Below are positions 9,070 to 29,769 of a DNA stretch of 29,769 bases, one piece after another. The position numbers were made by a program, and so were the translations under genes. Numbering within the stretch: the first letter of the stretch is position 1; the number at the start of each line of letters is the position of its first letter. The stretch comes from Candidatus Scatomorpha stercoravium (GTDB lineage Bacteria; Bacillota; Clostridia; Oscillospirales; Oscillospiraceae), in assembly GCA_018716005.1 (NCBI GenBank), contig DVKN01000007.1, positions 1 to 29,769 of the forward strand, written 5' to 3'. The notes beneath the pieces are model-generated. The model was not told where the DNA came from. It did not search any database and saw only the letters and a list, made by a program, of their open reading frames with translations.

Positions 9070-9654
9070 TCAGTCCGGTTCGGGGAGGGGGGAGGCGGGG
9101 GCGCCGGATCTGTCTATGGCGGCCTCGACGCCGGAGAATTTTATGAGGAAGCCGAAGACCTCCATAATCTGAAGTATCTCGCGGTCGCCGTGGCGGCCCT
9201 TGGAGTGGCTCACTAGGATGTAGCCCATGAGCCGCTCGACGGTCTCCGCGTTCTTCTCGTCGAGGTCGGCGTATACGGGCTGCGCCCCGAAGCCGGGCGA
9301 GCGGAAGCGGAAGTAGGGGTTCGCCATGAAATACAGGAAAAGCAGGTAGGGGAACTGGCACTCCACGTAGTGGAGGACGCCGCCCTCCGGCGTTATCTTA
9401 TAGGGCTGGTAGTCGCTTATCGCCATGAGCACGCCGCGGTGCAGCTCGTGGACGCCGGCGTTTATGGATATCCGGCCGCGCCCGCTCTTTATATAAATGA
9501 GGGTTATGCTCTCGTTGTGGCGGATGGGCGTCTCCACCGCCGCCGTGCGCAGCGCGGCCTTGATAAAGGGCTGGGAGTCGGCCTCGCTGCTGAAGAAGTA
9601 GTCCATGCTGGTCATGGGCTGGGTGAAGCCTTCAATTTTCTTTTTCTTCGCCAA
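9070..9654 (-). CDS. barB: Stand-alone AraC-type cupin/ligand-binding domain protein (barB-like by synteny)
   Basis: HNESITLIYIKSGRGRISINAGVHELHRGVLMAI cupin pattern, no HTH; TTG start overlapping end of upstream AraC gene; symbol from position relative to bai operon only. Confidence 0.55.
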   Translation of the reverse strand: MAKKKKIEGFTQPMTSMDYFFSSEADSQPFIKAALRTAAVETPIRHNESITLIYIKSGRGRISINAGVHELHRGVLMAISDYQPYKITPEGGVLHYVECQFPYLLFLYFMANPYFRFRSPGFGAQPVYADLDEKNAETVERLMGYILVSHSKGRHGDREILQIMEVFGFLIKFSGVEAAIDRSGAPASPLPEPD

Positions 9655-10879
9655 GCTGGCCCCATCCTTTCTTCATGCGGAATTCGGTCGGCGTCATGCC
9701 GTTTATGTTCTTGAAGGCCCTCGAGAAGACCTTGACGGAGTTGAAGCCGACGCTCATCGAGATGTCGAGGAGGGGGAGGTCCGTGTTCAGCAGCAGGGAC
9801 TCGGAGTGCCTCACGCGGCAGAGGGAGATGATATACCTCACGCTGAGCCCGAAGAGCTCGCGGAACTTCTCGCTCAGCAGCGTCTCGGAGATGTAGAGCT
9901 CGGCGGCTATCTGCTTCTGGGTTATGGGCTGGGCGTACTTCGTCTGGATGATGTTCAGCGCGGAGATGACGGTGCGGCTGTTCACCATGCCGTAGTAGCC
10001 GCTGCCCGCGCACATGCGCATGAGCCGGTACTCGTTCGGCGAGACGCCCTTGAGCCGCTTGAACACGCGGTAGAACGAGGCCTCTGTCGAGAAGCCGGCG
10101 TAGGAGAGCAGGTAGGAGAGGGACACGTCCTCGAAGAACATGGCCCCCGCGGCGATGTTTATGCGTATCCTGTCGAGGGACTGCTGGAAGTCGCGGCCGC
10201 TTATCCGCCGCAGCTCGTAGTTGAGCTGCGCGCTCGTGCAGCCGAATTCGGCCGCCACGCCCGCCGAGGTCAGCGGATCGCGGTAGTGCTCCGCGATGTA
10301 CAGCACGACCGTCCAGCCGAGGGGGCGCGGCTCCGGCTCCTCGCCGCGCCGCGCGCGCTTTATGCAGTCGTTGATGAAGAAGACGACTATCTGCCCGAGC
10401 GTCGCGACCTTTATCATCGAGCTGCCCTGGCTGACGGAGTCGTTCTCGGCCTCGAACTCGCTGAGCAGGCGCTGGATTATCTCCTTCTTCTCCTTGCGCA
10501 TCTGCATGACGGGCCGCGACTGCATGATGGCCCGGGACGCCAGGGGCGTCAGCGTCTGCGTGACGAGGTAGGACGAGAGTGGGTAGTCGTACGCGCACAG
10601 CGAGAAGCTGAGCGTGCTGCCGAAGGCGGGCTCTATCGTATAGGTGTGGTAGGATTGCAGCCAGCACAGGCTGCCGTCGGAGAGGGGGAACTCGACCCCG
10701 TTGATGGTTATCACGCCCTCGCCCGAGGTGACGAAGAGCACCAGGCTCTCGTCCTCGGATATGGGCGGCGTGGGCTCGGTTATGGAGAAGTGCTGCAGCT
10801 TCAGGAACTTGTCGCCGCTCACAAATACGCCGCTCACGGGCTTAACCGGTATGCTCTTGGAAACAGGCCAATTCTTCAT
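9632..10879 (-). CDS. barA: AraC/XylS-family regulator with N-terminal cupin and two AraC DNA-binding domains (barA-like)
   Basis: Cupin LVLFVTSGEGVITINGVEFPL; two AraC C-terminal signatures (AGFSTEASFYRVFKRLKGVSPNEYR and VGFNSVKVFSRAFKNINGMTPTEFR); divergent from baiB; start chosen at ATG 10879 (AGGA 8 nt upstream), 10888 also possible; symbol by synteny. Confidence 0.7.
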   Translation of the reverse strand: MKNWPVSKSIPVKPVSGVFVSGDKFLKLQHFSITEPTPPISEDESLVLFVTSGEGVITINGVEFPLSDGSLCWLQSYHTYTIEPAFGSTLSFSLCAYDYPLSSYLVTQTLTPLASRAIMQSRPVMQMRKEKKEIIQRLLSEFEAENDSVSQGSSMIKVATLGQIVVFFINDCIKRARRGEEPEPRPLGWTVVLYIAEHYRDPLTSAGVAAEFGCTSAQLNYELRRISGRDFQQSLDRIRINIAAGAMFFEDVSLSYLLSYAGFSTEASFYRVFKRLKGVSPNEYRLMRMCAGSGYYGMVNSRTVISALNIIQTKYAQPITQKQIAAELYISETLLSEKFRELFGLSVRYIISLCRVRHSESLLLNTDLPLLDISMSVGFNSVKVFSRAFKNINGMTPTEFRMKKGWGQLGEEKEN

Positions 10880-10916
10880 CTGCGCCATCCTGACTGGTAA
10901 AAAATAGGGATATTTT

Positions 10917-10942
10917 GCGGGCGTCCCGCTTTTGGACGCCCG
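10917..10942. promoter_or_regulatory. GC-rich hairpin in the barA leader
   Basis: GCGGGCGTCC/GGACGCCCGC 10-bp stem, 6-nt loop. Confidence 0.55.
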
Positions 10943-11086
10943 CTGTGTTTTACGTGCTACATGAACGTGGGAACTGTTAAAGTTCGGACAAAGAAAGGCC
11001 GCGCCTGTGCGCCATGCACACAATCCGGGCGTGAAAGCCGCCCTTAATTTGCTACTTAGCATACACAAACGGGCCTTACCGATAGT

Positions 11087-11115
11087 ATTTTACTTGTTTT
11101 GTTCCTCTCTGTCAA
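11087..11115 (-). promoter_or_regulatory. sigma70 promoter for the AraC regulator genes
   Basis: Minus strand TTGACA (11115-11110), 17 bp, TAAAAT (11092-11087). Confidence 0.8.
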
Positions 11116-11185
11116 TAAAGAATCAATGGTTTCAAGCCTCGGGATGCAAATTTTTTGCCCACTTTTCACCCCTACTTATCAAGTC

Positions 11186-11201
11186 AAATGTGTTAACATT
11201 T
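11186..11201. promoter_or_regulatory. Palindrome overlapping a candidate extended -10 of the bai promoter
   Basis: AAATGT-GTTA-ACATTT; includes TG-T-TAACAT; 67 bp upstream of baiB; no good -35. Confidence 0.4.
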
Positions 11202-11268
11202 TAGCAAAAGGGAACGAAGAAAGCATGAGTGGGACAAGCGTCCGCGCGCTTAGGGGGGTATAGAGAAT

Positions 11269-12795
11269 ATGTCCGAAGGCGTCCGCCTTAACAAATACAA
11301 TCTCGGAGAGAGCGACTTCGTAACGCCGGGGATGCAGCTGCACTATGTGGCGCAGGCGAAGCCCGACGAGCCGGCCGTCATCCACGTGAAGGACGGCGGG
11401 ACGGAGGAGCGGATAAGCTGGAGCGAGCTCGACAGGCTGACAAGCCGCATGGCTTGGATGCTTATGGACCACGGAGTTGGGCCGAAAAGTACGGTATTAT
11501 GCACGTATCCCAACGGAATTGAGCATATTGCGGCGAATTTGGCAATATGGAAGACGGGCGCGGCCTATATGCCCACCTCGCACCGCACCTCGCCCGAGGA
11601 GCTGCTCGAGCTCCAGGAGCTCCTGTCCCCGGCCGCGGCGCTCACGGACATAGACGTCGACGAGAAGGTCTTCAAGTGCGGCATGGCCGAGCTCCGCGAG
11701 GCCTGCTCCGGCTACTCCGACGAGATGCCGCCCGACGTCCTCGCGAACCCGAACATAATAAACGCCTCCGGCGGCACGACGGGGAAGCCCAAGCTCATAA
11801 AGCAGAACATCCCCTGCGGCCACTCGGACGGCTCCATCGGCTCCTGGTTCCAGGTGAGCGGCATGGCGATGGACCAGACGCAGCTGCTCGCGGGCGCGCT
11901 CTTCCACGGCGCGCCGCACATAGCCGCGATGAACGGCCTCTTCTCCGGCGGCACGCTCGTGATACCCTCGACCTTCTGCCCGGAGGGGCTCGTGGAGTGC
12001 ATAGAGAAGTATAAGGTGCAGTTCATGCAGACCGTGCCGACGCTCATGCACAGGATAATAAAGACGCCCGGCCTCAAGAAGGAGAGCTTCGCCTCCATAG
12101 AGGCGCTCTGCCACACCGGCGGGGCCTGCTCCGAATGGCTCAAGCGCGCCTGGTTCGAGATACTCGAGCCCGAGAAGATATACGAGATGTACTCTATGAC
12201 CGAGGTCATAGGCATGTGCGCCATACGCGGCGACGAATGGCTCAAGCACCCGGGCAGCGTCGGCCTCCCCAAGTACGGCAGCCGGATATCCATCCGCGGC
12301 GCCGAAGGCGAGCCGCTCGCGCCCTACGAGGTCGGCAACATCTATATGTCGCCGCCGGCCGGCTTCTTCTACACGGAGTACATAAACGAGAAGCCGCTCG
12401 GCACGATTGAGGACAGCTTCCGCAGCGTCGGAGATATGGGCTACGTCGATACCGAGGGCTACCTCTACTTCTCCGACAGGCGCAGCGACATGATAGTCAC
12501 CGGGGGCGAGAACGTCTTCGCCGCCGAGGTTGAGAACGCCCTGCTGCGCGACGCGCACGTCCTCGACGCCGTCGTCGTCGGCATACCCGACCCGGAGTGG
12601 GGCAGGAGGCTGCACGCGGTCATTGAGACGGACGGGCTCGTCACGGCGAAGGAGCTCAAGGCCTTCCTCAAGACCTTCATGCTGCCCTACAAGATACCGA
12701 AGACCTACGAATTCGTCGACCGCATCCGCCGCAAGGACAACGGCAAGGTCGCGAGGGACGAGATACTCCGAGACAGCATCGCCAAGGGCGTCTGA
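11269..12795 (+). CDS. baiB: Bile acid-CoA ligase
   Basis: ANL superfamily; matches recalled C. scindens BaiB segments (NKYNLGESDFVTPGMQL, LANPNII..SGGTTGK.K.IKQN.PCG, PEKIYEMYSMTE, YLYFSDRRSDM). Confidence 0.93.
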   Translation: MSEGVRLNKYNLGESDFVTPGMQLHYVAQAKPDEPAVIHVKDGGTEERISWSELDRLTSRMAWMLMDHGVGPKSTVLCTYPNGIEHIAANLAIWKTGAAYMPTSHRTSPEELLELQELLSPAAALTDIDVDEKVFKCGMAELREACSGYSDEMPPDVLANPNIINASGGTTGKPKLIKQNIPCGHSDGSIGSWFQVSGMAMDQTQLLAGALFHGAPHIAAMNGLFSGGTLVIPSTFCPEGLVECIEKYKVQFMQTVPTLMHRIIKTPGLKKESFASIEALCHTGGACSEWLKRAWFEILEPEKIYEMYSMTEVIGMCAIRGDEWLKHPGSVGLPKYGSRISIRGAEGEPLAPYEVGNIYMSPPAGFFYTEYINEKPLGTIEDSFRSVGDMGYVDTEGYLYFSDRRSDMIVTGGENVFAAEVENALLRDAHVLDAVVVGIPDPEWGRRLHAVIETDGLVTAKELKAFLKTFMLPYKIPKTYEFVDRIRRKDNGKVARDEILRDSIAKGV

Positions 12796-12859: not shown

Positions 12860-14773
12860 ATGTTTGACGCACTGTTTAGCCCCATGAAGATTCGCGGCCT
12901 CGAGCTCAAGAACCGCGTTGTCCTCCCCGGCATGAACACCAAGATGGTCCGCAACAAGCACGAGATAGGCGAGGACATGATAGCCTACCACGTCGCGAAG
13001 GCCAAGGCCGGCTGCGCCCTGAACATCTTCGAGGTCGCCGCCGTCTGTCCGGAACCCCACGCCTATATGTACATGGGCCTCTACACCGACAAGGACGTCG
13101 AGGAGCTCCGCAAGCTCACCGACGCCGTCCACGCCGTCGGCGGCAAGATGGCCATCCAGCTCTGGCACGGCGGCTTCACGCCCCAGTACTTCTTCGACGA
13201 GAGCAACAAGCTCGAGACGCCCGACACCCTGAGCGTCGAGCGCCTGCAGGAGATTGAGAAGCAGTTCGGCGCCGCCGCCAAGCGCGCCGCCGACGCCGGC
13301 TTCGACGCCGTCGAGTTCCACGGCGGCCACAGCTACCTGCCCCACGAGATGCTCAGCCCCGGCACCAACCACCGCACCGACGAGTACGGCGGCAATTTCG
13401 AGAACCGCTGCCGCTTCGCCTGGAACTGCATTAAGGAAATCCGCGCGAACATCCCCGACAGCATGGCCCTCTTCATGCGCTGCGACGCCGTCGACGAGCT
13501 CATGCAGGAGAACATGACCGAGCAGGAGATAGTCGACTTCATCAACCGCTCCGCCGAGCTGGGCGTCGACGTCGTCGACCTCTCCCGCGGCAACTCCATG
13601 AGCTTCGCCACCGTCTACGAGGTCCCGCCCTACCTGCTGAAGCCCGGCTTCAACATGGACAACATCGCCAAGATAAAGGCCCAGGTCAGCATCCCCGTTA
13701 TGGGCGTCGGCCGCGTCAACACCCCCGAGCTCGCCGACAAGCTGATAGCCGAGGGCAAGGTCGACCTCGTCGGCATCGGCCGCGGCCAGATTACCGACCC
13801 CCAGTGGGTCAAGAAGGCCCAGGAGGGCCACCCCGAGCTTATCCGCAGGTGCATCGGCTGCGACCAGGGCTGCTATGACGCCGTCATCGACCCGCGCTTC
13901 AAGACCATCACCTGCACCCGCAACCCGCTCGCCTGCCTCGAGTACAAGGGCCTGCAGAAGACCGAGAGCCCGAAGAAGGTCATGATAATCGGCGGCGGCA
14001 TGGGCGGCATGATGGCGGCCGAGATACTCAAGGCCCGCGGCCACGAGCCCGCCATTTTCGAGGCCTCCGACCACCTGGGCGGCCAGTTCCTCCTCGCCGG
14101 CGTCGCTCCGCAGAAGCAGGAAATGACCGCCGCCGCCGAGTGGGAGGTCAAGGAGGTCGAGCGCATGGGCATCGAGACCCACCTCAACACCCCCGTCACC
14201 CCCGAGCTCATCGCCGAGGTCAAGCCCGACGAGGTCATAGTCGCCATCGGCTCCGACTACGTCTGCCCGGCCATCCCCGGCGCGGAGACCGCCTATCACC
14301 AGTACCAGGTCCTCACCGGCGAGGTCAAGCTCTCCGGCAACGTCTGCGTCGTCGGCTGCGGCAGCGTCGGCAGCGAGGTCGCCATGCTCCTCGCGGCCCA
14401 GGGCTGCAAGGTCACCGTTATGGAGAAGAAGGGCGTCGGCAACGACCTCACCATGCTCCGCAAGATGTTCATCAAGCCCCAGTTCAAGGGCTTCGGCATC
14501 ACCGGCATGAGCGGCACCGCCGTGCTCGGCATTGAGGACGGCAAGAAGGTACACTTCGTCGTCACCGACCGCAAGACCAAGGAGAGCACCCAGGGCAGCG
14601 CCGACTTCGACGCCGTCGTTATCTGCATGGGCATCACCGCCCGCGGCAGCGAGGACCTCCAGGCCAAGTGCGCCGAGCTGGGCGTGCCCTGCCACGTTAT
14701 CGGCGACGCCAAGCAGGCCCGCACCGCCCTCTGGGCCACCCGCGAGGCCGCCAAGGTCGCGCTGGATATGTAA
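12860..14773 (+). CDS. baiCD: 3-oxo-delta4-cholenoic acid oxidoreductase BaiCD (OYE TIM barrel + 4Fe-4S + FAD/NAD domains)
   Basis: RGLELKNRVVLPGMNTKM, PHAYMYMGLYTD, QLWHGGF.PQ.FFDE.N.LETPDTL, CIGCDQGCYDAVI match recalled BaiCD. Confidence 0.95.
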   Translation: MFDALFSPMKIRGLELKNRVVLPGMNTKMVRNKHEIGEDMIAYHVAKAKAGCALNIFEVAAVCPEPHAYMYMGLYTDKDVEELRKLTDAVHAVGGKMAIQLWHGGFTPQYFFDESNKLETPDTLSVERLQEIEKQFGAAAKRAADAGFDAVEFHGGHSYLPHEMLSPGTNHRTDEYGGNFENRCRFAWNCIKEIRANIPDSMALFMRCDAVDELMQENMTEQEIVDFINRSAELGVDVVDLSRGNSMSFATVYEVPPYLLKPGFNMDNIAKIKAQVSIPVMGVGRVNTPELADKLIAEGKVDLVGIGRGQITDPQWVKKAQEGHPELIRRCIGCDQGCYDAVIDPRFKTITCTRNPLACLEYKGLQKTESPKKVMIIGGGMGGMMAAEILKARGHEPAIFEASDHLGGQFLLAGVAPQKQEMTAAAEWEVKEVERMGIETHLNTPVTPELIAEVKPDEVIVAIGSDYVCPAIPGAETAYHQYQVLTGEVKLSGNVCVVGCGSVGSEVAMLLAAQGCKVTVMEKKGVGNDLTMLRKMFIKPQFKGFGITGMSGTAVLGIEDGKKVHFVVTDRKTKESTQGSADFDAVVICMGITARGSEDLQAKCAELGVPCHVIGDAKQARTALWATREAAKVALDM

Positions 14774-14829: not shown

Positions 14830-16746
14830 ATGCACTTTGAAAACCTCTTTTCCCCCATCAAGCTCCGCGGCCTCGAACTCAAGAACCGCGTGCTTATGCC
14901 GGGCATGGACACCAAGTTCGCGCACGACCACATAGGCGATGAGGTCATCGCCTATCACGTCGCGCGCGTCAAGGGCGGCTGCGCGCTCAATATGTTCGAG
15001 TGCACCGCCGTGCACATCACCTCGCGCTCGAGGATGAACTTCGGCCTCTACACCGAGGAGCAGCGCGACGAGTTCAAAAAGCTCACCGACGCCGTCCACG
15101 CGGCCGGCGGCAGGATAGGCGTGCAGCTGCTGCACTGCGGCTTCGTCTACCGCCCCTTCCTCTATGAGGGCGTCCGCTGCCTGGACGTCAACAACATGAC
15201 CAAGGAGGACATAGACGAGATAGTCGCCGCCTTCGGCCGCAGCACCGCCCTCGCCGTCGAGGCCGGCTTCGACACCGTCGAATTCCACGCCGCGCACACC
15301 TACCTCGCCCACGAGTTCCTCACCGCGGCCATCAACCGCCGCACGGACGAGTACGGCGGCAGCCTCGAAAACCGCGCGCGCTTCGCCCTCGAGTGCATCC
15401 GCGAGATGCGCCGCAATATGCCCGAGGATATGCCGCTGCTCATGCGCGTCGACGTCCACGACGACTACCTCGAGAACGGCCTCACCGTCGACGACGTCGC
15501 CCAGTTCGTGAACTGGGCCGGCGAGGCCGGCGTCGACCTTGCGGATGTGTCCCGCGGCAACATCCTCTCCTTCGCCAACGTTTACGAGGTGCCGCCCATC
15601 AACCTGCCGAAGGGCCTCAACATAGACCTCATCGGCGAGCTCAAGAGCAAGGTCAAGGACGTCGCCATAGCCACCGTCGGCCGCATAGTCGAGCCCGAGA
15701 TGGCCGAGCGCGCCCTCGCCGAGGGCAAGGCCGACATGGTCGCCATCGGCCGCGCGCAGATAGCCGACCCCGACTGGTGCGTCAAGGCCATGCGCGGCGA
15801 GAGCGACAAGATAGTCAAGTGCATCGGCTGCCTCCAGGGCTGCTACGACGCCGTGACCCTGCCCGACCGCGCCCACATAACCTGCCTGCGCAACCCCATG
15901 TGCGGCCGCGAGAGCAAGCCCGTCCCCACCGCCAAGCGCAGCCTGCGCGTCATGGTCATCGGCGGCGGCATGGGCGGCATGGTGACCGCGCGCTACCTCA
16001 AGCAGTTCGGCCACGAGCCCGAGATTTACGAAATGACCAACGCCCTCGGCGGCCAGTTCGTCCTCGCCGGCAAGGCCCCGCACAAGGACGAGATTGGCGA
16101 GGCCGACCTCTGGGAGCAGCACGCCGTGCTCAGCCTGGGCATCCCCGTCCACCTGAACACCACCGTCACCCCCGAGCTCATCGCCCGCGTCAAGCCCGAC
16201 GCCGTCATCTGCGCCACCGGCGCGACCCCGCTCATCCCGCGCATCCCCGGCTACGACCTCCCGCACGTCTGCAACGCGCACGAGGTCCTCGCCGGCGATA
16301 TAACCCCGTCCGGCAACGTCGTCATCATCGGCGGCGCCTCCGTCGGCGTCGAGGTCGCCGAGTACCTCGCCGAGCGCGGCGCCCACGTGAGCGTCATCGA
16401 GATGCGCAACAAGCCCGGCATCGGCTACGGCCCGCTGCGCCGCAAGTTCGTCAAGAAGAACCTGTTCGAGTACGGCATCAACTTCATCGGCGAGGCCAAG
16501 TGCGAGGAGATACGCCCCGACAGCGTGGTCTACACGAAGCACGAGAAGACCGCCAGCATCCCCTGCGACGCCGCCGTCATCTCCGTCGGCTCCCGCAGCC
16601 GCGACACCACCGACATCGTCTCCGCCTGCAAAAAGCTCGGCATATTCTGCCGCGTGATAGGCGACGCGAAGGCCGTCGGCAACGCGCTCGACGCCACCAC
16701 CGCCGGTATGGACGCAATCTACGAGCTTCTCGCCGAGAACGCCTGA
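14830..16746 (+). CDS. Second BaiCD-like flavoenzyme (tandem paralog)
   Basis: Same architecture and strong similarity to the upstream BaiCD (RGLELKNRVLMPGMDTK, SRGNILSFANVYEVPP, CIGCLQGCYDAV) but divergent substrate loops. Confidence 0.88.
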   Translation: MHFENLFSPIKLRGLELKNRVLMPGMDTKFAHDHIGDEVIAYHVARVKGGCALNMFECTAVHITSRSRMNFGLYTEEQRDEFKKLTDAVHAAGGRIGVQLLHCGFVYRPFLYEGVRCLDVNNMTKEDIDEIVAAFGRSTALAVEAGFDTVEFHAAHTYLAHEFLTAAINRRTDEYGGSLENRARFALECIREMRRNMPEDMPLLMRVDVHDDYLENGLTVDDVAQFVNWAGEAGVDLADVSRGNILSFANVYEVPPINLPKGLNIDLIGELKSKVKDVAIATVGRIVEPEMAERALAEGKADMVAIGRAQIADPDWCVKAMRGESDKIVKCIGCLQGCYDAVTLPDRAHITCLRNPMCGRESKPVPTAKRSLRVMVIGGGMGGMVTARYLKQFGHEPEIYEMTNALGGQFVLAGKAPHKDEIGEADLWEQHAVLSLGIPVHLNTTVTPELIARVKPDAVICATGATPLIPRIPGYDLPHVCNAHEVLAGDITPSGNVVIIGGASVGVEVAEYLAERGAHVSVIEMRNKPGIGYGPLRRKFVKKNLFEYGINFIGEAKCEEIRPDSVVYTKHEKTASIPCDAAVISVGSRSRDTTDIVSACKKLGIFCRVIGDAKAVGNALDATTAGMDAIYELLAENA

Positions 16747-18153: not shown

Positions 18154-18156
18154 GCT

Positions 18157-21657: not shown

Positions 21658-23469
21658 GTGAAGCTGAATCCAGGTACATATGAGGGCTGCGCGCGCGGAT
21701 ACGGCGGCAGGCTCTATGTGAGCGCCGAGGTCTCCGAGGGGAGCATCCTCAGCGTAAAGATAACCAAGCACCGCGAATACCGCGGCATAGCCTGGGGGCT
21801 GAACACCACGCCCATCGAGAGCTTCCCCGGGCTCATAGTCAAATACCAGAGCCTCAACATTCCCCCGGTAACGGGCGCGGACGTCACCTGCGAGGCCATC
21901 CTCGGCGCGGTTTCCGCCGCCCTCGCGGCCGCGGGCGCGTCCGAGGAGGACATAGCCGCGCTCCGCTCCGCCCCCGGCCCCGTGCCGCCCGAGTATGAGG
22001 ACGAGGTCCGCCATGTCGACGTCGTGGTCTGCGGCGCGGGCGCGGGCGGCCTCGCCGCCGCCATCGAGGTCAAGGAGGCCGGCGGCGACGTCGTGATTGT
22101 GGAGAAGCAGGGCGTGACCGGCGGCGCGACCGCGCGCTCCGGCGGCAAGCTCCTCGGCGCGGGCACCGAATGGCAGAAGCGCCAGGGCATCTACGACAGC
22201 GAGAACATGGTCTACGACTACCTCATGGAGGTGGGCGACCGGCAGGGCAAATTCATGGACGCCGGGAAGACCCGCTATCTCGTCGACAACCTGAACTCCA
22301 CCATAGAATGGCTCAGCTCCATCGAGGCCACCGTGAAGGGCGATGAGGAAGAGATACTGGCCATGCCGTATCAGGAGCTCTCCCGCCCGCGCAGGAAGGA
22401 CGGCGCGCTCAAGACGAGCTACCACGTCCTCGACGTCGAGGCCATACACAAGAGCCTCCAGCCCTGGAGGGTGCACAATTCCCCCGGAGGCGGCGGCCAG
22501 ACGAACGGCCAGGGCGGCGAGATTTCCACCCCGCTCACGCTCTACTATGAGAACGACATCGGCGGCGAGATAATCTACAACACCGCCATGCAGGAGCTGC
22601 TCACCGACGAATACGGCGCGGTGACCGGCGTCGTATGCCGCCGCGCGAACGGCGCGAAGCTGACGCTCTACGCCCGCCGCGGCGTGATAATCGCCACCGG
22701 CGGCTACGCGCGGAACAAGGAGATGTGCTCCCGCTACCCCGTGGCGCACTACTTCAGCAACGTCCCGTGCGGGAACGTCGGCGAGGGCCTCACGGCCGCC
22801 GAGAGGATAGGCGCGCTCAACTACGAGCACCCGGCCGTGCAGGTGGTCTACACCTCGCTGAGCTGCGGCGTCGGCATAAACGACGAGAGCGGCCTCATAG
22901 TGAACAGCCGCGGCGAGCGCGTCGTAAACGAGTGGACCTATCAGTACACGGTCTCGGACGCCATCGCACGCTCCGGCAGCAGCTGCGGCTGGTACATAAC
23001 CAGCGGCGACGAGCCCTATCCGACCGTGCGCTACGGCTTCGCCCAGGCTGTCGAGGGCAAGAGCCGCGACTACGCCGCCGACAGCATAGAGGAGCTGGCC
23101 GTGAAGATAAAGGCCGACCCCGCCGTGCTGAAGGCCACATACGAGCGCTACTGCGAGCTCGTGGAAAAGGGCGCCGACGAGGACTTCGGGAAGCCCGCGA
23201 AGTTCCTCCACCCCATAAAGGGGCCGAAGTTCGCCGCGCTCAGGCTCCACCCCTGCGTGACCGTCACCTTCGGCGGGCTGGACACCGACCTCTCGGCGCG
23301 CGTAATACGCCCCGACGGGAGCGTCATACCCCGCCTGTACGCGGCCGGCGAGGTCGCCGGTACGGGAATGTACGGCACGCAGTACCCCACCTGCGGCACC
23401 TCCATAGGCAGCGCGCTCTTCTACGGCCGCATAGCCGGACGCGCCGTCATGGATAAGAAGATGCTTTGA
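21658..23469 (+). CDS. FMN-bind + FAD_binding_2 (flavocytochrome/fumarate-reductase-like) oxidoreductase, BaiJ/BaiP-like
   Basis: N-terminal PGTYEG.ARGYGG.L.V...V FMN-bind domain; DVVVCGAGAGGLAAAIE, EKQGVTGGATARSGG, TFGGL, IPRLYAAGEVAG; GTG start after GAGGAGG; no signal peptide. Confidence 0.8.
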   Translation: MKLNPGTYEGCARGYGGRLYVSAEVSEGSILSVKITKHREYRGIAWGLNTTPIESFPGLIVKYQSLNIPPVTGADVTCEAILGAVSAALAAAGASEEDIAALRSAPGPVPPEYEDEVRHVDVVVCGAGAGGLAAAIEVKEAGGDVVIVEKQGVTGGATARSGGKLLGAGTEWQKRQGIYDSENMVYDYLMEVGDRQGKFMDAGKTRYLVDNLNSTIEWLSSIEATVKGDEEEILAMPYQELSRPRRKDGALKTSYHVLDVEAIHKSLQPWRVHNSPGGGGQTNGQGGEISTPLTLYYENDIGGEIIYNTAMQELLTDEYGAVTGVVCRRANGAKLTLYARRGVIIATGGYARNKEMCSRYPVAHYFSNVPCGNVGEGLTAAERIGALNYEHPAVQVVYTSLSCGVGINDESGLIVNSRGERVVNEWTYQYTVSDAIARSGSSCGWYITSGDEPYPTVRYGFAQAVEGKSRDYAADSIEELAVKIKADPAVLKATYERYCELVEKGADEDFGKPAKFLHPIKGPKFAALRLHPCVTVTFGGLDTDLSARVIRPDGSVIPRLYAAGEVAGTGMYGTQYPTCGTSIGSALFYGRIAGRAVMDKKML

Positions 23470-23542: not shown

Positions 23543-25528
23543 ATGGACATGAAAGACTCTAAGCTGTTTTCCCCGCTCAAGGTGGGCTCCCTGACGCTGC
23601 GCAACCGCGTCGGCATGGCCCCCATGAGCATGGACTACGAGGCGAAGGACGGCACCGTGCCCAAGCGCCTCGCGGACATCTTCGTCCGCCGCGCCGAGGG
23701 CGGCACCGGCTATGTCATGATAGACGCCGTCACGATTGACCGCAAGTACCAGTACATAGGCAAGACCACCTGCCTCGACTCCGACGACCTGGTCCCGCAG
23801 TTCCGCGAGTTCGCCCAGCGCGTCGCCGCCACCGGCAGCACCCTCGTGCCCCAGATTATCCACCCCGGCCCGGAGAGCATCTGCGGCTTCCGCGGCATCC
23901 CGCCCCTGGGCCCGAGCGTCAACACCAACGCCAACTGCCACGTCTCCCGCGCGATGACCATCGACGAGATACACGAGGTCGTCAAGCAGTTCGGCCAGGC
24001 CGCCAGGAGGGTGGAGGAGGCCGGCTGCGGCGCCATCGGCCTGCACTGCGCCCACGCCTACATGATGCCCGGCGCCTTCCTGAGCCCGCTGCGCAACAAG
24101 CGCATGGACGAGTACGGCGGCTGCATCGACAACCGCGCCCGCTTCATCCTCGAGGTCATAGCCGAGGTACGCGCGAACGTCAGCCCCGACTTCCCGATTT
24201 TCCTGCGCGTCTCCGGCAGCGAGCGCGTCGAGGGCGGCAACAGCCTCGAGGAGATGCTCTACCTCGCGCCCAAGTTTGAGGCGGCCGGCGTCAACCTCAT
24301 CGAGGTCTCCGGCGGCACCCAGTACGAGGGCCTCGAGAACATTATCCCCAGCCACGGCAAGCACATAGGCATGAACGTCTATGAGGCCAGCGAGATAAAG
24401 AAGGTCGTCAACATCCCCGTCTACGCCGTCGGTAAGATAAACGACATCCGCTACGCCGCCGACATAGTCGAGCGCGGCCTCGTGGACGGCGTGAGCATGG
24501 GCCGCCCCCTGCTCGCCGACCCCGACCTCTGCAACAAGGCCTACGAGAACCGCTTCGACGACATCACCCCCTGCGGAAGCTGCGGCGGCAGCTGCATCAC
24601 CCGCACCGCGGAGCGTCCCCAGTGCCGCTGCCATATCAACCCGCGCGTCGGCCATGAGTACGACTATCCCGACAACCCGACCGACAAGCCGAAGAAGACC
24701 CTCATCATCGGCGCGGGCCCCGGCGGCATGTACGCCGCCGTCACCGCCGCCGAGCGCGGCCACGACGTCACCGTCTGGGAGGCCGACGACAAGATAGGCG
24801 GCCAGCTCAACCTCGCCGTCACCAGCCCCGGCAAGCAGGAGATGACGAAGTGGCTCGTCCACCTCAACTACCGCGCGAAGAAGGCCGGCGTCAAGTTCGA
24901 GTTCGGCAGGGAGGCCACCGTCGAGGCCGTCCGCGAGTTCAATCCCGACGCGGTTATCGTCGCCACCGGCGCGAAGCCGCTCATCCCGCCCATCAAGGGC
25001 ACGCAGGAGTATCCCGTCCGCACCGCTCACGACTACCTCAGGGGCAAGTTCGTCATCCCGAAGGGCCGCGTGTGCATCCTCGGCGGCGGCGAAGTCGCCT
25101 GCGAGACGGCCGAGACGATACTCGCCAACGCCCGTCCGACCGCGTTCACCCGCGGCTTCGACGCGAGCATCGGCGACGTCGAGGTCACCATCATAGAGAT
25201 GCTCCCCCAGATCCTCACCGGCGTCTGCATGCCCAACAGGGCGCCCCTTATGCGCACGCTGAAGGCCAACGGGGTTGACATCAACGTAAATACCAAGGTA
25301 CTCGAGGTCACCGACCACGACGTAAAGGTCCAGAGGAAGGACGGCACCGAGGAGTGGCTCCGCGGCTTCGACTACATCATCTTCGGCCTCGGCGCCCGCA
25401 ATTACGATCCCCTCAGCGAAGAACTCAAGGCCTTTGTCCCCGAGGTGCACGTTATCGGCGACGCCGTCAAGGCCCGCCAGAGCAGCGACGCCATGTGGGA
25501 AGGCTTCGAGGTCGCATATAACCTGTAA
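23543..25528 (+). CDS. baiH: BaiH NADH:flavin oxidoreductase (OYE + 4Fe-4S)
   Basis: MDMK.S.LFSPL..GSLTL.NRVGMAPMSMDYEA.DGTVPKRLAD, GGTQYEGLE, EMTKWLVHLNYRAKKAGVKFEF match recalled BaiH. Confidence 0.96.
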   Translation: MDMKDSKLFSPLKVGSLTLRNRVGMAPMSMDYEAKDGTVPKRLADIFVRRAEGGTGYVMIDAVTIDRKYQYIGKTTCLDSDDLVPQFREFAQRVAATGSTLVPQIIHPGPESICGFRGIPPLGPSVNTNANCHVSRAMTIDEIHEVVKQFGQAARRVEEAGCGAIGLHCAHAYMMPGAFLSPLRNKRMDEYGGCIDNRARFILEVIAEVRANVSPDFPIFLRVSGSERVEGGNSLEEMLYLAPKFEAAGVNLIEVSGGTQYEGLENIIPSHGKHIGMNVYEASEIKKVVNIPVYAVGKINDIRYAADIVERGLVDGVSMGRPLLADPDLCNKAYENRFDDITPCGSCGGSCITRTAERPQCRCHINPRVGHEYDYPDNPTDKPKKTLIIGAGPGGMYAAVTAAERGHDVTVWEADDKIGGQLNLAVTSPGKQEMTKWLVHLNYRAKKAGVKFEFGREATVEAVREFNPDAVIVATGAKPLIPPIKGTQEYPVRTAHDYLRGKFVIPKGRVCILGGGEVACETAETILANARPTAFTRGFDASIGDVEVTIIEMLPQILTGVCMPNRAPLMRTLKANGVDINVNTKVLEVTDHDVKVQRKDGTEEWLRGFDYIIFGLGARNYDPLSEELKAFVPEVHVIGDAVKARQSSDAMWEGFEVAYNL

Positions 25529-25591: not shown

Positions 25592-27013
25592 ATGGATGCT
25601 ACAGTAAACAAAAACTACATGAAGGGCTTTGTGCCCTTCGCCATGGCCGCGGCCCTGGTCAGCCTCGCCGGCGGCTTCACCGCGTCTATCCCCAACAACA
25701 TAGTCAGCGCCTGGGGCCTGGATTCCACCTGGGTCACCTGGATCACCCTCTCGATGAGCATGGGCATGGCCGCCTGCGCGCCTGTCCTCGGCAAGCTCGG
25801 CGACATCTTCGGCCGCCGCGGCGCCGCCCTCGTCGGCATAGCCCTCATGGCCATCGGCGAGCTCGCCATCGGCCTCGCGCCCGACGGGGCCATCTGGATG
25901 GTCCTCGCCGCCAGGTTCGTCGTCGGCGTCGGCGCGGCCGCCATTTCCCCGACCGTCATCGCCTACATCACCAGCGAGTTCCCGCCCGTGAAGATGGGCA
26001 ACGGCTTCGCCGTCTACATGGCGCTCTCCAGCGGCATGGTCATCTTTGGACCCACCGTCGGCGGCCTTATCTTCCAGGCCACCCAGAACTGGCGCCTCAT
26101 CCTCTACATCTGCGCCGGCCTCGCCGCTCTCTGCTTCGTCATCTGCCTCGTCACCATGAAGAAGGAGACCGGCCCCAGGAAGGGCCTCGCCGGCTTCGAC
26201 ATCTTCGGCGGCATCTTCATCATCCTCGGCTTCTCCCTGGTGCTCTGCGTGCCGACCGTCGGCCAGGGCGCGGGCGGCTGGCTCGGCACCGCCAGCCTCG
26301 CTGTTATTGGCTGCACCGTCGTTGCGCTCATAGTCCTCTTCCTCGCCGAGCGCAAGGCCAAGAACCCCATCCTCAACGGCAAGTTCATGGCCCGCAAGGA
26401 GTTCATCCTCCCCGTCGTCGTCCTCTTCCTCACCCAGGGCCTCATGCAGGCCTGCATGACGAACACCATCCGCTTCTCGATGATGTTCGACCCGACCAGC
26501 TCCGTCGCCAGCTTCGCGACCTCCATCATGTACGTCGGCATGACCATCGGCAACATCGCCGTGGCCCCGCTCTCCAACAAGCACGAGCCGCGCTACATCT
26601 CCGTCCTCGCGCTGCTCTTCTGCCTCGTCGGCGCCGCCATCCAGCTGCTCTTCACGGCTGAGTCCGGCTTCGTCCTGTTCGCCTCCAGCCTGTTCTTCAT
26701 CGGCCTGGGCCTCGGCGGCAACGGCACCATCTTCATGAAGGTCGCCCTCTCCGGCCTCGACCCGCAGATCGCGGGCGCCGGCAGCGGCACCTACACCGTG
26801 TTCCGCGATATGTCCGCCCCCTTCGGCGTCGCGGTGTTCAGCTCCATGTTCGTCGGCGGCTATGCCGCCGCCCAGCAGGCGGGCGACGCCGCCGCCCTCG
26901 GCGCGGCCGTCGTCAGCTCCATGCACAACGTCGCCTGGGTCCAGATGGCCTGCGTCGTCGTCGGCATGGTCGTCTGCCTGATGCTCCCCAAGATTTACAG
27001 CAAGAAGGCCTGA
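25592..27013 (+). CDS. baiG: Bile acid MFS transporter
   Basis: 14-TM-type MFS; NY.KGFVPFA, GKLGDIFGRR, KNPILNGKFMARKEF.LPV, GLGGNGTIFMKVALSGL, FRDMSAPFGVAVF match recalled BaiG. Confidence 0.93.
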   Translation: MDATVNKNYMKGFVPFAMAAALVSLAGGFTASIPNNIVSAWGLDSTWVTWITLSMSMGMAACAPVLGKLGDIFGRRGAALVGIALMAIGELAIGLAPDGAIWMVLAARFVVGVGAAAISPTVIAYITSEFPPVKMGNGFAVYMALSSGMVIFGPTVGGLIFQATQNWRLILYICAGLAALCFVICLVTMKKETGPRKGLAGFDIFGGIFIILGFSLVLCVPTVGQGAGGWLGTASLAVIGCTVVALIVLFLAERKAKNPILNGKFMARKEFILPVVVLFLTQGLMQACMTNTIRFSMMFDPTSSVASFATSIMYVGMTIGNIAVAPLSNKHEPRYISVLALLFCLVGAAIQLLFTAESGFVLFASSLFFIGLGLGGNGTIFMKVALSGLDPQIAGAGSGTYTVFRDMSAPFGVAVFSSMFVGGYAAAQQAGDAAALGAAVVSSMHNVAWVQMACVVVGMVVCLMLPKIYSKKA

Positions 27014-27071: not shown

Positions 27072-27578
27072 TTGACTATTCCTGCCGATAAGGAAATCAC
27101 CGAACTCGTACGCGAGATACTCACCGAGGCCGGCAAGGGCTATACCCCCGAGCAGCTAGCCGAAATCCCCAACATCCTCGCCACCAAGTACAAGTACTGG
27201 TGGTGCATAGACATGCAGATGTGGGACCTGCTCCCCGAGGTCTATACCGAGCCCTTCGAGGCCTATTCCAACGGCCGCCTGGTGCCCAACAAGTGCATTC
27301 AGGACCAGGTCGACCGCGCCGCCGTCGTGTGCAACGACTCGATGGTGCCGACCCACATGGGCCACAACCCCATCGTGCAGTTCACCGGCGAGCGCTCCTG
27401 CCGCCTGCTCACCCGCCTGAACGACTACCACACCTATAAGGACGACGGCTCCACCTACGAGGGCTGGGCCCTTTACGTGGACGACATGGTGAAGTGCGAC
27501 GACGGCGTCTGGCGCATAAAGACCCTGCGCCTCACCTACCGCAAGATACTGGGCAAACTTCGCACCCTGGGAGTTTAA
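27072..27578 (+). CDS. baiI: SnoaL/NTF2-like protein, probable BaiI
   Basis: KYKYWWCID...PTHMGHNP...LYVDD...DGVWRI; BaiE-like fold; located beside baiG/baiH; TTG start 27072 after AAAGGAG; name from fold plus synteny. Confidence 0.65.
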   Translation: MTIPADKEITELVREILTEAGKGYTPEQLAEIPNILATKYKYWWCIDMQMWDLLPEVYTEPFEAYSNGRLVPNKCIQDQVDRAAVVCNDSMVPTHMGHNPIVQFTGERSCRLLTRLNDYHTYKDDGSTYEGWALYVDDMVKCDDGVWRIKTLRLTYRKILGKLRTLGV

Positions 27579-29560
27579 TGATGAACGACACCTGCTTCAA
27601 GCTGCTCGAGCCGGGCAAGATAGGCCGCCTCGAGCTCAAAAACCGCATAATCCTCGCCCCCATGGGCACCATCGTGGGCAACCTCGGCCCGCGCGGCGTC
27701 GAATACTTCGTCGAGCGCGCCAGGGGCGGCGCGGCCATGCTCATGTGCAACATAGTCGCGTCCGACTACTTCGAGGACCCCAGCCACTCCATTTTCCTCA
27801 ACGACCATAGCACGCCGTATTTTAAGGAGCTGTGCGAGCGCGCCCACGCCCTGGGCAGCAAGGTCTGCGCCCAGCTGCACCCCGGCAACGGCCGCATCGG
27901 CGGGCCCAGCCTGCGCTACCCCGTGCCGATAAGCGCGAGCGCCTGCCCCTGGATGCATGCCCCGCAGGTCATGTGCCACGAGCTGAGCGTCGACGAGATA
28001 CACAAGCTCGAGGACGACTACCGCGCCGCCGCGCAGCGCGCCGTCGGCGCCGGCTGCGACGCCATCGAGATTCACGCCTACGGCGGCTACCTCACCGACC
28101 AGTTCCTCACCGCGCGCTGGAATAAGCGCACGGACGAGTACGGCGGGGACCTGGACGGCCGCATGCGCTTCCTCAGGGAGCTCATCGCCATCTCCAAGGA
28201 GGTCGGCGGAGCGGACTTCCCGGTCATCGTCAAGTACTGCCCCGACCACTACCTGCCCGTCGAAGAGGGCTACCGCGGCATAGAGGAGGGCCTCGAGCTC
28301 ACGCGCAAGCTGCTCGAGTGCGGCGTGGACGCGCTCCACGTCGACGCCGGCTGCCATGACGACTGGTACCTCGCCATGCCGCCCGACTACATCCAGGAGA
28401 TGACCCTCCAGGCCCGCAGCGCCAAGGCCGTCAGGGAGATAAGCACCGTGCCCGTCCTGACCCACGGCCGCTACTCCAACGTCGAGAAGGCCGAGAGCGT
28501 CCTGCGCCACGACGTCTGCGACTTCACGGTCATAGGCCGCGGCCTCCTCGCCGACCCCGAGCTGCCCAACAAGCTCGCCGAGGGCCGCGCCGAGGACATC
28601 CGCCCCTGCATCTCCTGCAACGAGGGCTGCATAGCCCGCTCCTACGCGCTAAAGAACGCCACCTGCGCCGTGAACCCTGTCTGCGGCCATGAGATAGACG
28701 GCGGCATCCCCAAGGCGAAGACGCCCCTGCGCGTCCTCGTCGTCGGCGCCGGCCCCGGCGGCTGCACCGCCGCGCTCTACGCGAAGGCCGCCGGCCACGA
28801 GGTCGAGCTCTGGGAGAAGAGCGCCTCCATCGGCGGCAACGCCCTCGCGGCGAGCCAGCCCTACTTCAAGGCCGATATGCACGCCCTCATGACCTGGTAC
28901 AAGCTCCAGCTCGCCAAGGCCGGCGTGCCCGTCCGCTACTGCCGCGAGGCCAACCACGACAACGCGGCCGCCTGGAAGCCCGACAGGATAATCTGGGCCG
29001 CCGGCGGCGCGCCGATACTGCCCGCGAGCATCCCGGGCCTCGACGGCTACAGCGTCTACTCCGCCACCGACGCGCTCAGGAACCTCGTCGACGTCGGCGA
29101 GCGCATAGTCATGGTCGGCGGCGGCATGGTCGGCATCGAGGCCGCGCTGCACTTCGACCGCATGGGCAAGCAGGTCACCGTCATCGAGATGGCGAAGAAG
29201 ATGCTGCCACAGCCGATGTTCAAGATGAACGGCGACCTGCTCAAGAAGATGATGCGCGAGAGCGGCATCACCTTCCGCACCAGCACCAAGCTCGTGTCCG
29301 TCGACAGCACCCGCACCCACACCGCCGTGACGGTCGAGGGTTCCGAGGGTGAGGACACCATAGAGTGCGACACCGTCCTCATGGCCCTGGGCTTCGCCCC
29401 CACGGCCAAGGCCGGCGAGGCCCTCGCCGACATCTGCCCCGTCATAGCGATAGGCGACGCGGTGGAGGCCAGGAAGATTCTCTACGCCACGACCGACGCT
29501 TACAACGCCGTCCTCGGGCTTGAGAATCCGGAAACCATAGACTTCAGCGACAAAGGCTGA
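27578..29560 (+). CDS. Fourth OYE/BaiCD-BaiH-family NADH:flavin oxidoreductase (4Fe-4S)
   Basis: LKNRIILAPM, NKRTDEYGG, CISCNEGC...CAVNP, VVGAGPGG, VGGGMVG; TAATG coupling to upstream stop; start moved from 27494. Confidence 0.88.
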   Translation: MMNDTCFKLLEPGKIGRLELKNRIILAPMGTIVGNLGPRGVEYFVERARGGAAMLMCNIVASDYFEDPSHSIFLNDHSTPYFKELCERAHALGSKVCAQLHPGNGRIGGPSLRYPVPISASACPWMHAPQVMCHELSVDEIHKLEDDYRAAAQRAVGAGCDAIEIHAYGGYLTDQFLTARWNKRTDEYGGDLDGRMRFLRELIAISKEVGGADFPVIVKYCPDHYLPVEEGYRGIEEGLELTRKLLECGVDALHVDAGCHDDWYLAMPPDYIQEMTLQARSAKAVREISTVPVLTHGRYSNVEKAESVLRHDVCDFTVIGRGLLADPELPNKLAEGRAEDIRPCISCNEGCIARSYALKNATCAVNPVCGHEIDGGIPKAKTPLRVLVVGAGPGGCTAALYAKAAGHEVELWEKSASIGGNALAASQPYFKADMHALMTWYKLQLAKAGVPVRYCREANHDNAAAWKPDRIIWAAGGAPILPASIPGLDGYSVYSATDALRNLVDVGERIVMVGGGMVGIEAALHFDRMGKQVTVIEMAKKMLPQPMFKMNGDLLKKMMRESGITFRTSTKLVSVDSTRTHTAVTVEGSEGEDTIECDTVLMALGFAPTAKAGEALADICPVIAIGDAVEARKILYATTDAYNAVLGLENPETIDFSDKG

Positions 29561-29585
29561 CAACATTATAAGGAGGAAATTTATC

Positions 29586-29769
29586 ATGGACAGACTGAAA
29601 GGCAAAGTATGCGTAATCACCGGCGCTGACGGCGGCATCTGCCACAAGGCCAGCGAGCTCTTCTGCGCCGAGGGCGCGAAGGTTGTCATGGTCGACATCG
29701 ACCCCAACGTCGAGGCCAAGTGCGCCGAGCTCGTCGCCAACGGCGGCGACGCCATCGCCATCACCGCCG
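29586..29769 (+). CDS. SDR oxidoreductase, 5' part only; runs off window end; not in ORF track
   Basis: Hand translation MDRLKGKVCVITGADGGICHKASELFCAEGAKVVMVDIDPNVEAKCAELVANGGDAIAIT; AAGGAGG RBS. Confidence 0.85.
   Translation, partial: MDRLKGKVCVITGADGGICHKASELFCAEGAKVVMVDIDPNVEAKCAELVANGGDAIAITA

Follow-up and report, generated by a model that had tools for sequence, protein, structure and literature searches.

An enlarged bai-type gene array with candidate accessory bile-acid enzymes in an uncultured Oscillospiraceae species of the chicken gut

The window analysed here is a stretch of 29,769 nucleotides (nt) from Candidatus Scatomorpha stercoravium (contig DVKN01000007.1), and it holds an array of 15 plus-strand genes that extends from 11269 up to the contig end at 29769 and contains genes of bile-acid 7alpha-dehydroxylation (bai). 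The genes are arranged in the order baiB, baiCD, CD2, baiE, baiA, SDR2, baiF, SDR3, Sno2, baiJ, baiH, baiG, Sno3, OYE4 and SDR4, and they are separated by gaps of 64, 56, 84, 48, 3, 37, 53, 11, 28, 73, 63, 58, -1 and 25 nt, respectively. An earlier note on this DNA, made from its letters, had described at least 15 co-directional genes with short gaps and no clear internal terminator, and this is also what we found: 15 genes, gaps between -1 and 84 nt, and no plus-strand terminator-like site between them. The start that it gave for the array, position 9070, has to be moved, because 9070-11068 is occupied by two minus-strand regulator genes divergent from the array and the co-directional genes begin at 11269. 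Seven genes are additions to the canonical bai operon and agree with the extras listed in that note, namely two old yellow enzymes (OYEs; CD2 and OYE4), two short-chain dehydrogenases/reductases (SDRs; SDR2 and SDR4), a 7alpha-hydroxysteroid dehydrogenase (7alpha-HSDH)-like SDR (SDR3), a third SnoaL protein (Sno2) and a BaiJ-type flavoprotein (baiJ). The coordinates of the array and its control region are given in Table 1.

The window is the entire contig (C2) of a fragmented metagenome-assembled genome (MAG; 1.97 Mb in 291 contigs, 78% complete, 3.3% contamination), and hence the array is cut within its fifteenth gene, SDR4. The G+C content is about 60-69% over the array region. Since such a high G+C content produces numerous overlapping spurious open reading frames (ORFs), genes were picked by domain content and homology. 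For instance, a plus-strand ORF at 9605-10900 (431 amino acids, aa) was considered as the first gene of the array, but it has no Pfam or NCBIfam match, overlaps the minus-strand AraC gene and was treated as a spurious high-GC ORF. Likewise, the long ORF starts of baiE (16762), Sno2 (20871), Sno3 (27054) and OYE4 (27494) were replaced by starts that have ribosome-binding sites and agree with the homologues.

A scan for a BaiF pattern in one genome per species gave 13 loci, including those of Extibacter muris, Dorea sp. D27, Proteocatella sphenisci, two Peptacetobacter and several uncultured Oscillospiraceae. Comparison of the window proteins with these loci produced unambiguous one-to-one pairs whose order is almost unchanged, with the same divergent pair of AraC and cupin genes upstream (BaiB 51-63%, BaiCD 64-68%, BaiE 64-78%, BaiA 68-86%, BaiF 79-86%, BaiH 80-87% and BaiG 46-51% identity). 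For BaiF, the counterparts encoded at the baiF position of Proteocatella, Peptacetobacter, E. muris, Dorea sp. D27 and an Aminipila MAG show 79-83% identity, while BaiE is 64-71% identical to its counterparts in the E. muris, Dorea sp. D27, Proteocatella and Peptacetobacter loci. The curated NCBIfam models point in the same direction: BaiB reaches 760.8 bits with NF038344 (cut-off 650, passed by none of the 14 control genomes), and BaiCD reaches 846.8 bits with NF041087 (cut-off 825) and falls inside the BaiCD clade in the tree. The baiH product is placed inside the BaiH clade. BaiE matches the solved structures of the C. scindens group (PDB 4L8O, 4LEH and 4L8P; E = 1e-80, 4e-77 and 3e-74) and retains Y30, D35 and H83 in invariant alignment columns. 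These are the residues that we take, from the structural work on BaiE, to be the catalytic Tyr30, Asp35 and His83. Moreover, BaiA matches BaiA2 (PDB 4IS2/4IS3) with E = 5e-116, the next PDB match being at 3e-45.

The earlier note had read the locus as a true bai cluster, and this reading is borne out by the curated hidden Markov model cut-offs that were passed, the matches to solved structures and the 65-85% identity to operons of known 7-dehydroxylating genera. That the locus represents a genuine bai operon is well supported by these several independent lines of evidence. The further statement that all eight genes of the model operon are present, with H before G, holds for the gene order, as baiH precedes baiG here unlike in the canonical operon, but the BaiI-like gene shares just 34% identity with its E. 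muris counterpart at the baiI position. This gene, Sno3, is the best match to the gene that follows baiH (the baiI position) in E. muris and Dorea sp. D27, at an identity of just 34-35%.

The conserved bai upstream region with divergent barA and barB is also present, as seen from its motifs and from the AraC and cupin genes. The barA-like protein contains HTH_18 (3.5e-32, in two stretches) together with AraC_binding, and shares 41-45% identity with the divergent regulator of the Lachnospiraceae/Peptostreptococcaceae bai operons and 58-83% with that of most Oscillospiraceae relatives. A barB-like cupin gene follows the AraC gene in every canonical bai locus (28-70% identity); an equivalent cupin gene of 195 aa has been named barB, and the AraC gene barA (PMC9426597, Table 1). 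Alignment of the barA-baiB spacer of nine species revealed two motifs conserved out to E. muris and Proteocatella, which read GATAGTATTTTAC (11081-11093) and GTTAACATTTTAGCAA (11192-11207) in the window. The second of them, written GTTAANNTTNTANCAA, is found just upstream of baiA1 too in Dorea sp. D27 and E. muris. Its presence upstream of both baiB and baiA1 fits the conserved promoter that has been reported to be common to separate bai transcription units (PMC9645264). In the window this second motif has one exact copy and none inside the array, the sole other match (two mismatches) lying within barA at 10976-10991.

The earlier note had inferred one bile-inducible unit that covers a wider bile-acid stereochemistry (7-oxo, iso, allo and possibly 7beta), and on the single unit the evidence is indirect. 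The array is probably read from one bai-type promoter beside the divergent barA/barB pair, as suggested by the single bai promoter motif, the lack of a plus-strand terminator between the array genes and the contigs of RNA libraries that span six junctions. The consensus scan for terminators gave only two plus-strand matches, both within barA, and terminator-like matches overall were no more frequent than expected by chance (16 found, 12.8 expected). Thirteen runs from chicken or bird guts, most of them metagenomes, contained 87-95% of the words sampled from 14830-24800. The array sequence is partly present in six metatranscriptome libraries, four of which have contigs along the whole array, and some of these contigs cross the junctions baiCD-CD2 (1 nt into CD2), baiE-baiA, SDR3-Sno2, Sno2-baiJ, baiH-baiG and Sno3-OYE4.

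One feature of the array stands out at the CD2-baiE junction, where the 96-nt spacer folds at -36 kcal/mol (z = -2.05) and no U-tract follows the GC stem on the plus strand. The same stem resembles a terminator on the minus strand. A GC-rich palindrome of different sequence occurs at this junction in three other species, indicating that the structure itself seems to be maintained, and the stem-loop may be an mRNA element for processing, stabilising or attenuation. The hairpin is also an argument for dividing the array into several units (baiB-CD2, baiE-baiG and the terminal genes Sno3-OYE4-SDR4), each with its own promoter and regulation, as are weak promoter-like matches within the array and the fact that the three terminal genes lie on a separate contig in one relative (G412) and alone in another (G428), and therefore can be expressed without the baiB promoter. 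However, the coding strand shows no U-tract after the hairpin, the gaps are at most 84 nt, the starts of SDR2 and OYE4 abut or overlap the preceding stops, and a second conserved bai promoter motif is missing from the array, whose junctions are crossed six times by RNA-library contigs. Hence we regard a division into several units as possible but rather unlikely.

Table 1. Regulators, control region and genes of the bai-type array in the window
Feature	Position	Strand	Remarks
barB-like cupin protein	9070..9654	-	194 aa, no DNA-binding domain, weak Cupin_2 match
barA-like AraC-family regulator	9632..11068	-	cupin and two HTH_18 modules, divergent from baiB
barA-baiB intergenic control region	11069..11268	+	two conserved motifs
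baiB, bile acid-CoA ligase	11269..12795	+	NF038344 above cut-off
baiCD, Fe-S flavoenzyme (3-oxo-delta4 oxidoreductase)	12860..14773	+	NF041087 above cut-off, BaiCD clade
CD2, deep BaiCD paralogue	14830..16746	+	NF041087 just below cut-off, sister clade
GC-rich stem-loop, CD2-baiE spacer	16770..16796	+	about 10-12 G+C-rich pairs
baiE, bile acid 7alpha-dehydratase	16831..17352	+	PDB BaiE matches; start is ATG with upstream AGGAGG
baiA, 3alpha-hydroxysteroid dehydrogenase	17401..18153	+	PDB BaiA2 match
SDR2, BaiA-like SDR	18157..18918	+	starts 3 nt past baiA stop
baiF, family III bile acid CoA-transferase	18956..20257	+	CoA_transf_3 4.5e-91
SDR3, 7alpha-HSDH-like SDR	20311..21108	+	PDB 5EPO, NF049979
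Sno2, unnamed SnoaL_4 protein	21120..21629	+	SnoaL_4 5e-22
baiJ orthologue	21658..23469	+	Pfam FMN_bind and FAD_binding_2
baiH, Fe-S flavoenzyme	23543..25528	+	identity to canonical baiH position, BaiH clade
baiG, major facilitator superfamily (MFS) bile-acid transporter	25592..27013	+	MFS_1 9.5e-31
Sno3, BaiI-like SnoaL_4 protein	27072..27578	+	first gene of three-gene cassette
OYE4, divergent OYE/4Fe-4S/FAD flavoenzyme	27578..29560	+	Pfam domains; start overlaps Sno3 stop (TAATG)
SDR4, first 61 codons only	29586..29769	+	cut by contig end

Compared with the canonical bai operon of C. scindens, C. hylemonae, Peptacetobacter hiranonis and Extibacter muris, the window is alike in its core genes, their nearly identical order, the divergent barA/barB pair and the upstream motifs, and the protein identities to the canonical-type relatives that we compared (E. 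muris, Dorea sp. D27, Proteocatella and Peptacetobacter) range from 46 to 87%. Unlike the canonical hosts, the host of the window is an Oscillospiraceae species of about 62-65% G+C from the chicken gut. Most gut bai carriers are uncultured Oscillospiraceae (PMC6692061, PMC9426597), and bai clusters in such MAGs, which the earlier note had mentioned, have indeed been published in these papers, though in another layout (CAG-103 type). The CAG-103 cluster ('Firmicutes bacterium CAG:103'/UBA11811; Vital 2019, PMC6692061; Kim 2022, PMC9426597) comes from an uncultured high-GC genome of about 2 Mb in the same family and is likewise accompanied by barA/barB; some clusters of this type also have a 7alpha-HSDH-like SDR, as does the window. 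Its layout differs, however: baiE and baiCD share a strand, and the opposite one carries baiH-barA-barB-baiA-baiB-baiG-baiF-baiF (PMC9426597, Table 1).

In our own sample of the family, the bai-positive genera other than that of the window have the arrangements baiA-baiB-baiG-baiF-baiF-SDR-SDR or baiB-barA-barB-baiA-baiA-baiF-baiF, and their BaiA, BaiB, BaiF and BaiG are only 39-52% identical to those of the window. The first arrangement matches the CAG-103/UBA11811 cluster of PMC9426597 (Table 1), and the loci of this kind are 42-52% identical to the window in the same four proteins. With its different gene order and this low identity, the window was rejected as a member of the CAG-103 clade of Kim et al. 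The window cluster is part of the Lachnospiraceae/Peptostreptococcaceae operon lineage and not of the published Oscillospiraceae type. The occurrence of such a cluster in Oscillospiraceae fits the signals of horizontal transfer described by Vital et al. (PMC6692061). We came across no earlier account of such an architecture, and none of CD2, the Sno2 family or the three-gene cassette. The one study of the chicken gut that we found gives counts at the level of KEGG orthology only, for baiB, 7alpha-HSDH and bile salt hydrolase, and lists a Scatomorpha species among bile-acid-related taxa (PMC12575232).

Among the accessory genes, CD2 is 46.5% identical to baiCD of the window and scores 805.7 bits with NF041087, just below the BaiCD cut-off of 825. 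In the maximum-likelihood tree a six-member CD2 clade (99/94) is sister to the clade of all other sampled BaiCDs (100/100), suggesting that CD2 is an old paralogue rather than a recent tandem copy. By both cut-off and clade placement, CD2 is a BaiCD-like paralogue and not a BaiCD, and its homologues above 53% identity fall into a small set of protein clusters. CD2 retains the catalytic Tyr and all four 4Fe-4S cysteines, with Thr before the Tyr and Glu four residues after it. Thr and Glu are typical of the bile-acid clade, while Asn and Ser are typical of the steroid-hormone 5beta-reductase clade (Arp et al. 2025, PMC12238238), and CD2 therefore differs from the latter by the two reported residues.

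SDR2 is 42% identical to baiA of the window and has generic FabG proteins as its PDB matches, with BaiA2 third; a counterpart is found at the same position in related Oscillospiraceae clusters (60-90% identity). Neither NCBIfam nor PDB gave a specificity for SDR2 or SDR4, whose matches are generic FabG or glucose dehydrogenase. SDR3 scores 333 bits with the 7alpha-HSDH model NF049979 (curated cut-off 350), and its best PDB match is the 7alpha-HSDH 5EPO (6e-62), followed by other 7alpha-HSDHs at about 1e-40 and the first protein of another kind at 2.5e-36. Homologues of SDR3 occur inside other bai clusters at 45-95% identity.

Sno2 is invariant at the columns of BaiE Y30, D35 and H83, and its 173 homologues are named only 'hypothetical' or 'nuclear transport factor 2 family'. 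One of them (67% identical) is located directly upstream of a BaiP-type flavoprotein in Proteocatella sphenisci (L030:6882-9187), implying that the pairing of SnoaL and flavoprotein recurs with the other 5alpha-reductase type, and another stands directly upstream of baiB in Peptacetobacter. The idea that Sno2 is strictly linked to bai genes was abandoned, as homologues of 83% and 67% identity occur outside bai clusters (L073:10001-11740 and L075:10001-10525), one directly before an MFS transporter gene and the other alone among housekeeping genes.

The BaiJ/P-like reductase of the earlier note can be specified as BaiJ type. Over its full length, the window protein is 66-67% identical to the product of the gene that heads baiJ-baiK-baiL-baiA in Dorea sp. 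D27 and to a Peptacetobacter protein, versus 39-45% to the BaiP-type copies of Peptacetobacter and Proteocatella, while E. muris carries only fragments of a baiJ-type gene. The baiJKL operon was reportedly described by Ridlon in 2012. According to Lee (2022, PMC9645264), the Dorea sp. D27 and P. hiranonis proteins belong to the BaiJ cluster and the Proteocatella protein to the BaiP cluster, and BaiJ and BaiP have both been shown to be bile-acid 5alpha-reductases; BaiJ/BaiP homologues in uncultured Oscillospiraceae MAGs are mentioned there as well. The window gene shares FMN_bind and FAD_binding_2 with these enzymes and is 67% identical to the BaiJ-cluster protein of Dorea sp. D27. In model organisms baiJ is part of a separate baiJKL unit (PMC12065433), whereas in the window it lies within the main operon, where baiK and baiL are missing and Sno2 precedes it. 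A related locus, L005 (BaiF 97% identical to that of the window), has an SDR and a BaiF/BaiK-like CoA-transferase (46% to BaiF) between Sno2 and baiJ (L005:2941-6836), so that the main operon there includes all three baiJKL-type genes, arranged L-K-J. In this locus the match to baiJ comes in two parts (residues 1-461 and 573-603), owing perhaps to a deletion or to a problem of assembly.

The last three genes before the contig end form a module of their own. Sno3 keeps the BaiE-type Tyr/Asp/His columns. OYE4 is 32% identical to baiH of the window and forms a long-branch sister clade to BaiH in the tree; it has the motif HAYGGY where BaiCD has HGGHSY, retains the Tyr and the Fe-S cysteines, and finds its best PDB matches in 6QKG and the 2,4-dienoyl-CoA reductase 1PS9. 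The SDR4 fragment is 93% identical to the first 61 residues of a 254-aa SDR that follows OYE4 in L007. We found the three genes adjacent in seven genomes of the genus (34-98% identity). They are within bai clusters in the window, G416 and G418, but on a different contig from the bai cluster in G412, and in G428 they lie 220 kb from baiB among housekeeping genes (ThiI, CinA, BacA and FtsK; 68-76% identity). Two further genomes with the cassette, G409 and G410, are ones where BaiB was not found, and in G410 the genes resembling Sno3 and OYE4 are accompanied by two BaiA-like SDRs. Downstream of the cassette, relatives carry either a fourth SnoaL gene together with a MarR regulator or TetR and MFS genes. 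Sno3-OYE4-SDR4 is thus a portable, self-contained cassette, and since it occurs away from bai genes, it need not belong to the 7alpha pathway. The extras had been called interleaved with the core genes, and they are indeed built into the array, but this understates the independence of the cassette, which is found elsewhere too.

Two other explanations concerning the cassette were discarded. Selenocysteine was considered for OYE4 homologues with a TGA inside the gene (G408 and G409), but in G409 the TGA is a plain stop codon. Contig C248 of the same MAG (L089:1-3109) carries the 3' end of OYE4, a full-length SDR4, a fourth SnoaL_4 gene and a MarR-like region. This contig was rejected as the downstream continuation of the window, because the overlap shows only 91% identity and the identity to L007 is 97%, which indicates another strain or species in the bin. 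This co-binned strain or species may explain why the window contig breaks at this point.

Within the genus of the window, BaiB above the cut-off was detected in eight of 34 species genomes, and in 13 of the 401 sampled genomes of the family. The gene content of these clusters varies. In two species of the genus (G412 and G422) the cluster has neither baiE nor baiJ and ends after baiG; G412 has a BaiE-like gene of 50% identity on another contig, and no BaiE-like gene was found in the 76%-complete G422. A replacement of BaiE by Sno2 in such clusters is conceivable. The cluster of G416 is without baiF, and a family III CoA-transferase is encoded about 3 kb downstream. One species of the genus has baiE placed before the CD2-like gene. 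The gene set of the window is the largest among the clusters compared, with the exception of L005.

Taken together, we consider it quite likely that the array is a functional, canonical-lineage bai (Hylemon-Bjorkhem) operon of an uncultured chicken-gut Oscillospiraceae, probably served by one promoter, in which extra genes may provide parallel routes for isomers. Such an enlarged operon would probably handle more kinds of bile acid than the textbook operon. We regard the array as a variant of the known bai system, and the functions of its accessory genes are predictions. The data show the identities, order and conservation of the genes, the mobility of the cassette, the uniqueness of the promoter motif and the presence of the sequence in RNA libraries; the substrates, the induction by bile acids and the single transcript are inferred. 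The core steps are taken from characterised orthologues (reviewed in PMC12065433). BaiG would import the free bile acid, BaiB would ligate it to coenzyme A (CoA), BaiA would oxidise the 3alpha-OH and BaiCD would introduce the delta4 bond. BaiE would then take off the 7alpha-OH as water and BaiF would transfer the CoA, while BaiH, BaiCD and BaiA would reduce the 3-oxo-4,6-diene to deoxycholate or lithocholate.

Two of the extra genes lead to more specific predictions. With baiJ embedded in the array, we would expect allo (5alpha) products to be formed under co-expression or, in the reverse direction, allo-bile acids to enter, and 5alpha (allo) bile acids are said to be common in birds. The embedded 7alpha-HSDH-like SDR3 predicts interconversion of 7-oxo and 7alpha-OH forms, which would let 7-oxo forms from neighbouring bacteria enter the pathway. 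The remaining six extras represent the BaiA, BaiCD and BaiE enzyme types twice over, once scattered (SDR2, CD2 and Sno2) and once compact (Sno3, OYE4 and SDR4). These two sets might form parallel routes that oxidise, desaturate and dehydrate or isomerise those isomers that the core enzymes handle poorly. As a tentative extension, which we think doubtful as it stands, there may be up to three parallel units of HSDH, Fe-S flavoenzyme and SnoaL dehydratase (BaiA/BaiCD/BaiE, SDR2/CD2/Sno2 and SDR4/OYE4/Sno3), with the cassette being CoA-independent and dehydroxylating or isomerising another position or stereoisomer (7beta-OH, 12alpha-OH, 6-OH or 5alpha allo). If this is true, the cassette would carry out a bile-acid transformation for which no genes are known so far.

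Several observations weigh against the operon being functional in the way proposed. The contig stops inside SDR4, leaving the 3' end of the array outside the sequence, and the strong, conserved CD2-baiE hairpin could attenuate or process the transcript. The RNA evidence consists of low-depth, strandless, assembled contigs, with which contaminating DNA or separate transcripts remain compatible. CD2 and SDR3 both score below the cut-offs of BaiCD and 7alpha-HSDH, respectively, and baiE, baiF or baiJ is absent from the cluster in some sister species, so that not every extra is needed for the pathway. Moreover, a bile salt hydrolase was not found in the 78%-complete MAG, and the bai clusters of Oscillospiraceae MAGs await proof of activity (PMC6692061).

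Alternatively, the extras could be isozymes that divide the labour in the ordinary 7alpha pathway, with CD2, OYE4 and BaiJ as enzymes of the reductive arm, filling for example the role ascribed in C. scindens to BaiN, BaiH or BaiCD, and SDR2 and SDR4 as the final 3-oxo reductases. The reductive-arm flavoproteins are debated even in the model organism, where BaiH, BaiCD, BaiN, BaiJ and BaiP have been implicated (PMC12065433). CD2 retains the active-site residues of the bile-acid clade, and sister species manage with fewer extras. However, Sno2 and Sno3 keep a dehydratase-type Tyr/Asp/His that would be needless in a purely reductive role, the persistence of the cassette in genomes without detected BaiB means that it has a use outside the CoA-dependent pathway, and two HI0933-type (BaiN-family) genes are already present elsewhere in the MAG. 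We therefore view this division of labour as conceivable but unlikely.

A further explanation is that some of the accessory genes act on non-bile steroids, such as steroid hormones or cholesterol-derived ketosteroids, and merely share the locus. Like CD2 and OYE4, the steroid-hormone 5beta-reductases and delta6-reductases are members of the OYE/4Fe-4S/FAD superfamily; they form clades that are sister to BaiCD and BaiH, and in some genomes they are encoded near a bai operon (PMC12238238). OYE4 is itself a long-branch sister of BaiH, and the cassette occurs without genes for a CoA ligase, a CoA transferase or a transporter nearby. Nevertheless, CD2 has Thr and Glu where Asn and Ser are reported for the hormone clade, and all the extras are situated among the core bai genes, separated by short gaps and lacking a second promoter motif of the bai type; a role in non-bile steroid metabolism hence appears improbable. 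Finally, it is very unlikely that two strains or species were joined into a chimera during assembly or binning, since independent assemblies share the gene order: the MAG is fragmented and includes C248 with its 91%-identical copy of the OYE4 tail and SDR4, but G418 has baiF-SDR3-Sno2-baiH-baiG-Sno3-OYE4-SDR4 on one 65-kb contig, G416 carries baiB through SDR4 on one contig, and the 13 chicken or bird gut runs contain most of the words sampled from 14830-24800.

Secondary bile acids influence host metabolism, immunity and resistance to pathogens, and knowledge of the pathway rests on a few cultured Clostridia. The locus described here is near enough to the model operon for confident annotation of its core genes, and its extras make up a short list of candidates for bile-acid reactions whose enzymes are unassigned or disputed, namely the 7beta route, the entry of allo-bile acids and the reductive arm. 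In addition, survey counts of baiCD-like, baiH-like and baiE-like genes will catch these paralogues, and also the lone cassette, in genomes without the pathway.

Upstream of the array and its regulators, the window contains genes of other kinds. A 769-aa 5'-nucleotidase/metallophosphatase with C-terminal S-layer homology (SLH) domains is encoded at 1768-4077, which suggests a nucleotidase anchored to the cell wall. Next comes a cassette at 4512-8962 with an XRE-type helix-turn-helix gene (4512-4979), an IrrE/ImmA-type M78 peptidase gene (4976-5485), a Y-family ImpB/DinB-type polymerase gene (7065-8567) and a small ORF (8564-8962). A minus-strand AAA_14/DUF4143 ATPase gene (5575-6867) is located between the M78 peptidase and Y-family polymerase genes.

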